A DNA stretch of 64,000 nucleotides from Heptranchias perlo (Eukaryota). The notes under the pieces were generated by a model, which worked only from the letters and a program-made list of their open reading frames with translations, had not been told where the DNA came from and made no database searches. The stretch lies in NCBI RefSeq assembly GCF_035084215.1, contig NC_090344.1, positions 43,958,001-44,022,000 of the forward strand, written 5' to 3'. A program made the translations under genes and the position numbers. Positions 29,401 to 34,905 of the stretch are shown piece after piece. Numbering within the stretch: position 1 is the stretch's first letter; each line of letters starts with the position of its first letter.

Positions 29401-32400
29401 CACACCGGAAGTAGGTCTTGGTTTTAGCAGAAGGCATAGAAAGATCCACATCCATTATCCTAATCAGTTTAATGTTTTTCGTTTGCTTTGTCCGTAGCTA
29501 TTTTTATATTAAAAATTGTTTTAAAAGATCTCTAGAGGGAACTGTTTGAAAAAACAAGTTGATAGAGTGTACTGTTAACATTGTTGACAAGGATTTTGTA
29601 ATTATTGTTGCTGAACCTAGTTCTCCGTAACAGCAAGATCCTTGCATTATGAATGTTGATCAACAAGCAAGACATTTCTCACGCAGACAGCCTTTAAGAG
29701 AGGAGAGAAGAACTGTGGAAAAGTAAATGTTAAGTTACAAGTTTGTTTTCCAATTATTTTAGGGTCTGATACTGTATGATGACATAACAGAGAACAGTTA
29801 CCAGAAGTGGAAAAACCAGGAACCTGAGAAATTTGATCACTTCACAAAATGCTTTTCTATCTTCAAACTGAAGAGGGAGCCGATCTGTAATCTAGAACTT
29901 AGCAGACCAAGCAATCATGACTGTTTGGCTGTGAATGAGATTGGGAGAAAAGGACTTGCTGATCGTGCAGGGACTACTCAGCACGTAACTGCTGCTGCAG
30001 CAGGGGATAAGGACTGGAAGGCTGTGAGAGTGGACCTGATCATTGCCCCCTTTGGCCAGTATGCTTACGCCTTATTGGGATGGACAGGTTCACGGGTAAG
30101 TATAATTAAATAAAGCAGCATGTAAGACACAACTATTATATAAAATATAAAAAGAAAAACTCTGCTGAAAATCTGAATTGGACAGCTGATTGATTAGTAT
30201 CTGAAGAAGACTGATAATATTGAGATATAGGCTAATAGATGATGAAAACATGTATTTTAGCTCCTCCAATGGCTTTAGGTAAAGGCAGTATGTAGCTGAG
30301 CCATACAGACCAGAAGGTCCTAGGCTTGATTTCTGATCTGTGCTCAGTTTGGTTTCACTCTTACTTATCTGACTGTAACCAGAACGTCTCCAGCAATGGC
30401 TTCTCTTCCCGCCCCTGCACCGTTACCTCTGGAGTCCTCGAAGGATCTAACGTTGGTCTCTTCCTCATCTACATGCTGCCTCTTGGTGACATCATTGCAA
30501 ACATGGGGTCAGCTTTCACATGTATGTTGACAACACTCTCTTGACCCATCAACTTCCTCCCTATTGTCAGATTGCTTGTTCGATATCTGGTCTTGGATGA
30601 GCCACAATTTCTTCAAGTTAAACATGGGAAAGACTGAAGTCCCCGTCACAAACTCCATACCCTTGCCATCAATTCCATCCCCATCCCCAACAACTGTCTT
30701 AAGCTCAGCCAGGCTGTTCGCAACCTTGGCGCCCTATTTGACCCCGAGTGGAGTTTCCAACCCCTTATCCTCTCCATCACAAAGACCATCTACTTCCACC
30801 TCCGTAACATGGCCCATCTCCATCCCTGCCTGAGCCCATCTGCTGCTGAAACCCTCATCTGTGCCTTTGTCACTGCCAGACTTGATTATTCAAATGCTCT
30901 TCATGGCCTCCTGACTTCCACTTTCTATAAACTTCAGCTCATCAGAAACTCTGCTGCCTGTATCCCAACCCGCACCAAGAATTGCTCACCCAATACTCCT
31001 GGTCCCCCATAGCCTCAAATTTAAAATGATCATCTTTGTGTTTAAATTCCTCATGGCTTGCTCCTCACCATCTCAGTAACCTCCTGTAACCCGACTTCCC
31101 ACTTTCCCTTCATTCCACCATTGGCTGTTGTGCCTTCAGCCATTTAGGTCCCACACTCTGGAACTCCCTCCCTAAATCTCTCCGCCTCTCCTTCTTTAAG
31201 ATCATCCTTAAAACCCACCTCTTTGACCAAGCTTTTGGTCACATCTCCTTCTTTGTCTCAGTGTCCATTTTTGTCTTGAGATGTTTGTCTACTTTAAAGG
31301 TGCTATATAAATGCAGGTTGTTGTTGAGTTAGCTGATCTTAGCTAGCATGGCAGTAAGAACATTGCATTTGGTCTTAACATACCTGGGTTAGGGAGAAAA
31401 TCACCTAGAGTTCCTGATCCTAACCAACATAGAAAATAGGAGAAAAAGTAGGCCATTCGGCCCTTCGGGCCTGCTTCGCCATTCAAAATGATCATGGCTG
31501 ATTGTCTAACTCAGTACCCTGTTCCTGCTTTTTCCCCATATCCCATGATCTCTTTAGCATTAAGAAATATATCTATCTCCTTCTTGAATACATCTAATGA
31601 CTTGGCCTCCACTGCCTTCTGTGGTAGAGAATTCCACAGGTTCACCACCCTCTGAGTGAAAGAAATTTCTCCTCATTTTGGTTCTAAATGGCATACCCCA
31701 TATCCTGAGACTGTAACCCATGGTTCTGGACTCCCCAGCCATCAGGAACATCCTCCCTGCATCTGGGCTGTCTAGTCCTGTTAGAATTTTATATGCTTCG
31801 ATGAGATCACCTCTCATTCTTCCAAACTCTAGTGAATATAGGCCGAGTCGACCCAATCTCCCCTCATACGTCAGTCCTGCCATCCCAGGAATCAGTCTGG
31901 TAAACCTTCGTTGCACTCCCTCCATGGCAAGGACATCCTTCCTCAGATAAGGAGACCAAAACTGCACACGATACTCCAGATGTGGTCTCACCAAGGCCCT
32001 GTATAACTGCAATAAGACATCCCTGCTCCTGTATTCAAATCCTCTTGCAATGAAGGCCAACATACCATTCGCCTTCCTAACTGCTTGCTGCACCTGAACG
32101 CTCGCTTCCAGTGACTGGTGTACAAGGACACCCAGGTCTAGTTGCACCTCCTTTTCCCAATCTGTCACCATTCAGATAATAATCTGCCTTTCTATTGTTA
32201 CAACCAAAGTGGATAACCTCACATTTATCCATGTTATACTGCATCTGCCATGTTCTTGCCCACTTATCCAACTTGTCGAAATCACATTGGAGCCTCTTTG
32301 CATCCTCCTCACAGCTCACATTCCACTCCAGCTTTGTGTCGTCTGCAAACTTGGAAATGTTACATTTAGTTCCCTCATCCAAATCATTGATATATATTGT

Positions 32401-34905: not shown

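Follow-up and report, generated by a model that had tools for sequence, protein, structure and literature searches.

A TdT-like lysine at the Arg387 position of elasmobranch DNA polymerase mu, seen from the POLM locus of Heptranchias perlo

The window analysed here, a stretch of 64,000 nucleotides from the shark Heptranchias perlo, carries on its forward strand an 11-exon gene for DNA polymerase mu (Pol mu, POLM) at 17273-34905, which encodes 522 amino acids, has GT-AG introns throughout and contains no internal stop codon. The gene model is identical in sequence to the annotated Pol mu of H. perlo (P0001). All of the Pfam domains of Pol X (BRCT, 8-kDa, fingers, palm and thumb) were matched, so the motifs described below are not chance occurrences, and membership of Pol X is borne out by the 8-kDa, fingers, palm and thumb domains together with the three catalytic Asp residues. 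The N-terminal BRCT domain and a His before the first catalytic Asp are also present; they are common to POLM and TdT and so do not discriminate. Contigs presumed to derive from RNA joined 10 of the 10 POLM introns in each of runs X1, X2 and X3 and 5 of the 10 in X4, all four runs coming from one sample of one study, with an RNA status that was guessed and is on record for none of them. At the Lys codon discussed below, these contigs, which drop rare variants, listed no alternative letter, RNA editing or exon skipping. The first-pass annotation had located FDHFTKCF, GWTGSR, NSH and the exon 10 motif correctly, and ITHP, at 27605, lies outside the span of 29763-34169 to which it had assigned them. 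The features are as follows:

17273-17457, + strand: POLM exon 1, start codon, basic N-terminus and start of BRCT (gene model, Pfam, contigs)
19670-19850, + strand: POLM exon 2, remainder of BRCT (gene model, contigs)
21102-21200, + strand: POLM exon 3, linker and YACQRR motif, with T146 and N149 (gene model, contigs, alignment)
21701-21871, + strand: POLM exon 4, 8-kDa domain (gene model, Pfam, contigs)
22161-22232, + strand: POLM exon 5 (gene model, contigs)
22979-23099, + strand: POLM exon 6, fingers (gene model, Pfam, contigs)
26267-26399, + strand: POLM exon 7, GGFRR at its end (gene model, contigs)
27571-27673, + strand: POLM exon 8, GHDVD (His327, equivalent to human His329; catalytic Asp328 and Asp330) and the Pol mu-type ITHP at 27605
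29763-30095, + strand: POLM exon 9, Loop1, SD1, a long disordered post-SD1 loop, RVD (third catalytic Asp) and GWTGSR at its end
29778-29834, + strand: Loop1, 19 residues, of the Pol mu-type NSY, with a 10-residue motif at 29778
29832-29855, + strand: SD1, FDHFTKCF
29847-29849, + strand: Lys384 (codon AAA), aligned with human Pol mu Arg387 and mouse TdT Lys403
34086-34169, + strand: POLM exon 10, with a 10-residue motif at its start, an 11-residue helix motif and the thumb mini-loop
34140-34148, + strand: SD2, NSH (Pol mu type)
34819-34905, + strand: POLM exon 11, through the stop codon (gene model, contigs)
42335-42538, + strand: first coding stretch of a NUDCD3-type gene (synteny marker), with a CS-domain exon within 51270-51701

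The downstream neighbour, a gene with NudC-N and CS domains that starts 7.4 kb beyond POLM, matches a cluster named NudC domain-containing protein 3 as well as PDB 1wgv, KIAA1068, which we take to be NUDCD3. Between it and POLM lies a tandem repeat at 39195-39532 (57-nt unit, 5.9 copies, 98% matches). Upstream of POLM, an exon of a sulfatase gene, presumably GNS-like, is found at 3174-3470 on the minus strand. An AlphaFold model of the Pol mu protein had a mean pLDDT of 85.5, with low confidence in Loop1 and in residues 397-434; Loop1 residues 371-375 and 377-379 fell below 50 and the model is silent on the position of Loop1, while a fold search with it confirmed membership of Pol X only. The disordered loop behind SD1 (29877-29999 region of exon 9, residues 397-434) measures 44-48 residues in elasmobranch Pol mu, 17 in mammals and 11-101 in ray-finned fish, and is thus labile.

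The locus is the shark orthologue of POLM, an ordinary and already annotated repair polymerase gene. H. perlo possesses a separate TdT (P0144), which is 52% identical to the window protein. Phylogenetic trees were built from 60 rows (54 of the 74 picked vertebrate and amphioxus rows plus six invertebrates), 33 rows and 34 rows, and in all three TdT formed a single clade at 100/100 (stem 0.41-0.44) that included P0144 and excluded the window protein, which grouped with shark and ray Pol mu as sister to chimaera Pol mu at 100/98-99. The window protein carries THP, found in 0 of 119 TdT entries, and NSH at the place where 118 of the 119 have DNH; an N/S/T-S-H signature was present in 14 of 15 elasmobranch Pol mu entries, the remaining entry lacking that exon. 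Its best full-length PDB match, by sequence and by fold, was human Pol mu (structures 9cq3, 9n81 and 7co6 are named for comparison). POLM lies six genes from NUDCD3 in cattle (PMC7655849, PMC8662546; these and the other papers are cited for the portions available), so that the H. perlo window and the cattle gene lists have the POLM-NUDCD3 linkage in common, as a single marker. The identification as Pol mu rather than DNTT made in the first-pass annotation is thus supported by annotation, a separate TdT, linkage and motifs, and in the phylogeny with shark DNTT and POLM that it had proposed as a check the protein falls outside the TdT clade. The gene was also considered as a TdT, a candidate ruled out by its position outside the TdT clade and by NSH and THP.

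The SD1 motif is less helpful. The mammalian ERS, which includes Arg387, is replaced by TKC in the window protein; most Pol mu from outside the mammals have ERC instead, and elephant and manatee have EKS, so that ERS does not define the orthology group. The SD1 Lys of TdT (mouse K403) occurs in 119 of 119 TdT entries and in the window protein, which has a Loop1 of 19 residues with ENSY where TdT has 21 residues with (E/D)(S/A)T(F/L/M). A lungfish fragment named DNA nucleotidylexotransferase-like (P0024) contains THP, DHFERCF and NSH and is probably POLM.

Like other vertebrate Pol mu, the window protein has the BRCT to thumb domains, HDVD and RVD, the His329 equivalent, GWTGS, ITHP, NSH and the NUDCD3 linkage. 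It differs from human Pol mu in having Lys for Arg387, Thr for Glu386, Cys for Ser388, Phe at the Met382 position, Asp for Glu443, Lys for Arg449 and a 19-residue Loop1, and its post-SD1 loop has about 48 residues compared with 17 in mammalian Pol mu. With TdT, including P0144, it shares the SD1 Lys and Cys, an 11-residue motif, T146 and N149, but it has THP, lacks DNH and the 21-residue Loop1, is only 52% identical to P0144 and falls outside the TdT clade. The Pol mu/TdT-like Pol X of cyclostomes and invertebrates (lamprey, hagfish, amphioxus, echinoderms and molluscs) resemble it in a D.FE.CF-type SD1, an N(S/T)Y start of Loop1 and an S/T-S-H thumb, and the hagfish protein also in ERDLRRYA; the deuterostomes among them differ in having Arg (8/8), whereas many protostomes have Lys.

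The distribution of the Lys was surveyed with one row per species among the best matches listed, the mammals being mostly primates. Lys occupies the position of human Arg387 in 10/10 sharks, 5/5 batoids and the coelacanth, as well as in 2/13 mammals (elephant and manatee) and 10/13 protostome and other invertebrate entries. It was found in 0/1 chimaera, 0/70 ray-finned fish, 0/5 amphibians, 0/14 sauropsids, 0/2 cyclostomes and 0/6 invertebrate deuterostomes, nor was it present in the lungfish fragment. Arg is the residue in 69/70 ray-finned fish, 14/14 sauropsids, the chimaera, both cyclostomes and all six invertebrate deuterostomes, and three of the five amphibians have Ser or Thr. Entries P0115, P0118, P0476, P0127, P0036 and P0326 comprise elephant, manatee and coelacanth Pol mu with Lys, two salamanders with Ser and one frog with Thr. 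In sharks the Glu next to the site has also been lost (Thr or Ala). The Lys codon, AAA, is a single base away from an Arg codon, and the protein is rich in Lys overall, with K/(K+R) of 0.48 vs 0.24 in macaque and Lys at 14/24 toggling columns vs 4/21. The alignment of SD1 and SD2 across chondrichthyans that had been suggested earlier thus gives Lys in 15/15 elasmobranch species and Arg in the chimaera, with SD2 of the NSH type in 14/15. That the Lys is unusual held up, in that it is rare in jawed-vertebrate Pol mu and fixed in the elasmobranchs sampled, and the substitution R387K does raise the activity of the human enzyme (PMC4081086).

The residues around the Lys have another history. Amphioxus, echinoderms and chimaera have DHFERCF, 54 of 70 ray-finned fish have DRFERCF, and hagfish has ERDLRRYA. 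Judging from these sequences, DHF..CF and ERDLRRYA represent an old condition that was lost in mammals, being present in either amphioxus or hagfish and in many Pol mu from outside the mammals. The TdT look of SD1 in the window protein arises largely because it had been compared with the derived mammalian DAFERSF, and the textbook SD1 contrast (ERS vs QKC) is a mammalian contrast. The proposal that the protein is ancestral-like therefore stands for DHF..CF and ERDLRRYA, which are old, and is disfavoured for the Lys itself, for which the nearest outgroups have Arg; of the DHFxK combination, DHF..CF is widespread in non-mammalian Pol mu and the Lys is rare in jawed-vertebrate Pol mu. In the reading that we prefer below, the bulk of the TdT likeness is old sequence retained in a slowly evolving and compositionally TdT-like protein.

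The first-pass annotation had also described the gene as a possible mosaic with a TdT-type Loop1. Gene conversion that copied Loop1/SD1 and the helix behind it from DNTT would account for the score of exon 9 alone, which was 55.6 bits against mouse TdT and 35.5 bits against human Pol mu; this higher score is, however, a consequence of mammalian Pol mu being derived. For the 95 columns that span Loop1/SD1, the last part of exon 9 and exon 10, the species tree scored best. Topologies that nest shark Pol mu with the TdT of elasmobranchs or of chondrichthyans were rejected (AU p=0.0005 and 0.001), while one making it the sister of TdT as a whole was not (p=0.07). Residues 356-392 are 43/43/43% identical to shark, chimaera and tortoise TdT, so the shark's TdT is no more similar to this stretch than the other two are. 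TdT and bony Pol mu can be told apart at 22 columns; elasmobranch Pol mu agrees with TdT at nine of them, which would suit a mosaic, but these are scattered along the protein, and it agrees with bony Pol mu at another nine and with neither at four. A 22-column piece of exon 3 prefers the chondrichthyan-TdT grouping (species tree p=0.011); this piece was the sole such case among eight regions, was chosen post hoc, and carries a signal also seen in coelacanth. Loop1 itself starts with NSY, as in chimaera and teleost Pol mu (NTY in lamprey and amphioxus). Over residues 349-378 the identity is 57% with chimaera Pol mu, 35% with bony Pol mu and 28-39% with TdTs. It numbers 19 residues here and 18 in batoids against 21 in 119/119 TdT entries, although a 21-residue Loop1 also occurs in 3 of 13 mammalian Pol mu and so does not by itself identify TdT. 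Neither a TdT-type Loop1 nor a mosaic is supported by these comparisons; gene conversion in Loop1/SD1 and exons 9-10 is rejected by the topology tests and the identity comparison, and a mosaic gene is barely credible.

The deeper topology is less tidy. POLM was recovered as a single clade in no unconstrained tree; instead, chondrichthyan and coelacanth Pol mu joined TdT with support of 95/93 (60 rows), 94/95 (33 rows) and 90/90 plus 83/83 (34 rows), and with distant outgroups POLM monophyly was marginally rejected (AU p=0.034). When lamprey, hagfish and the full coelacanth protein were added, the species tree was not rejected (AU p=0.12), nor was it after Dayhoff-6 recoding (p=0.40). Site likelihoods traced the grouping of chondrichthyan Pol mu and TdT to exon 3 (T146, N149) and exon 4 (Y174), Loop1/SD1 contributing a delta lnL of only 0.2, and T146/N149 of exon 3 are the cause of the odd topology. 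TdT has both of these residues, as do the Pol mu proteins of chondrichthyans and coelacanth; Pro and often His take their place in cyclostomes and most bony Pol mu. GARP/FYMINK ratios are low in TdT (0.62-0.92) and in chondrichthyan and coelacanth Pol mu (0.93-1.09) compared with 1.08-2.60 in other bony Pol mu, and we infer that the joining reflects a root misplaced through composition and rate. Taken at face value, the unconstrained topologies and the p of 0.034 would make the window gene a hidden or misannotated second paralogue on the TdT side that is not orthologous to human POLM. This we consider very improbable, given the NUDCD3 linkage shared with cattle POLM (PMC7655849, PMC8662546), the NSH and THP signatures, the best full-length PDB match to human Pol mu, the monophyly that is not rejected with cyclostome outgroups and the several reciprocal losses that it would need.

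A pre-duplication state could also have been retained, the Lys, with T146 and N149, dating from the jawed-vertebrate stem before TdT and Pol mu duplicated, being kept by shark and coelacanth and reverting to Arg in chimaera, ray-finned fish, lungfish and tetrapods. On the 34-row ML tree the K/R site needs three changes, with Lys arising once before the TdT split; elasmobranch Pol mu branches are short, and the sharing of T146 and N149 fits the same history. On the species tree, a hand count gave five steps for an origin on the jawed-vertebrate stem, a single step more than the four needed for recurrence. Against retention stand the Arg of lamprey, hagfish, amphioxus, echinoderms, chimaera and lungfish, the attraction in the tree that fades with closer outgroups and with recoding, and the low GARP/FYMINK ratios just described, and we regard it as improbable. 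Judged solely by step counts, the Lys would most simply be recurrent, having arisen again on the elasmobranch stem, and the ancestral reading is disfavoured.

What the Lys might do can be approached through mutants, all of them on mammalian scaffolds. Arg387 of human Pol mu touches the primer and acts as a brake on its translocation against His329 (PMC3592450). The R387K mutant shows terminal transferase activity increased by as much as 100-fold, while Asn457 of NSH is required for synapsis and a TdT-like double mutant is unable to end-join (PMC4081086). The mouse TdT mutants K403R and K403A no longer behave as normal TdT, Q402A and C404A behave as wild type, the DN-to-NS change merely reduces activity and deletion of two Loop1 residues leaves a clearly less active enzyme (PMC2724280). 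Templated synthesis by Pol mu is blocked when the enzyme is given the Loop1 of TdT (PMC1636348). A fungal Pol X has template-independent activity and a tardigrade one is cited (PMC12828229), which implies that such activity predates vertebrates. The substitution of the human R387K laboratory mutant thus occurs naturally and is fixed among the sharks and rays sampled, albeit on another scaffold, the window protein being 48% identical to macaque Pol mu. Shark Pol mu combines the His, the Lys, Thr or Ala for Glu386, NSH and a short, non-TdT Loop1. By analogy with the human and mouse mutants, an Arg that holds the primer and slows backward translocation would be replaced by a Lys with a looser hold, His327 could then reposition the 3' end for repeated untemplated additions, and the short, probably mobile Loop1 together with Asn485 would still admit a template strand.

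Our preferred reading, to which we give a modest edge over evens, is that shark POLM is an intact, spliced Pol X gene in which Lys replaces the Arg387 brake; its product likely retains gap filling and templated end bridging, would add untemplated nucleotides more readily than human Pol mu and would not be a second TdT. A raised terminal transferase activity is in itself plausible, with chances that we put at about even because Lys is abundant throughout the protein and its context is different. Neutral drift could account for the Lys, in a Lys-rich protein at a site that is Ser or Thr in three of five amphibians, and a shortened Loop1 could cancel the gain from it. An ordinary Pol mu of this kind, with a functionally near-neutral Lys and a terminal transferase activity no higher than that of other Pol mu, offset by the short Loop1 and the shark context, is unlikely. 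In its favour, Lys recurs in unrelated lineages (elephant, manatee, coelacanth and the 10/13 protostome and other invertebrate entries), is enriched protein-wide and is a single base from Arg, and Loop1 is 2-3 residues below the invariant 21 of TdT, in which such deletions lower the activity of the mouse enzyme (PMC2724280). However, Lys fixed in 15/15 elasmobranch species beside Arg in 69/70 ray-finned fish and 14/14 sauropsids indicates that the site is not drifting freely, Lys is invariant in the 119 TdT entries, and sharks have lost the adjoining Glu, Q402A being wild-type-like in TdT (PMC2724280).

The preferred reading of a loosened brake admits a bolder extension, which we think quite unlikely: a Pol mu that naturally lacks the brake may have become fixed in sharks and rays, as a dual enzyme which would bridge ends and serve beside TdT as a second source of N nucleotides feeding N-rich light-chain junctions, mirroring the ancestor enzyme of TdT, with coelacanth and afrotherians as independent replicates. 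N additions at shark light-chain junctions have been attributed to TdT (PMC5192425); a more creative Pol mu, if true, would be a second source of them. The evidence so far amounts to a one-residue lead in a known gene. What appears to be new from the alignments is that the best-known switch residue between Pol mu and TdT is TdT-like throughout elasmobranch Pol mu and, once more, in that of coelacanth and afrotherians, the gene itself having been annotated before. No report of shark Pol mu SD1 or its Lys was found in the literature searched, whose coverage excluded the original R387K, elasmobranch TdT and zebrafish Pol mu papers and the Supplementary Figure S2 alignment of PMC4081086, which may already show the Lys; in the available portions of PMC3729694, PMC10322711, PMC3526283, PMC12362244 and PMC6795676, shark Pol mu did not appear. 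These lineages, with chimaera Pol mu as a closely related control that has Arg, provide natural enzyme pairs for asking whether the Arg387 brake is general.

Elsewhere in the window, a perfect inverted repeat has arms of 1331 nt at 10989-12319 and 12331-13661 around an 11-nt spacer, each arm with an open frame of 341-342 amino acids and no Pfam match. These frames resemble what we presume to be the endonuclease end of a Penelope-type retroelement, and the repeat is either a recent insertion or an assembly artefact. A LINE-type reverse transcriptase remnant (RVT_1) at 48899-50038 and other repeat fragments in several introns are ordinary.
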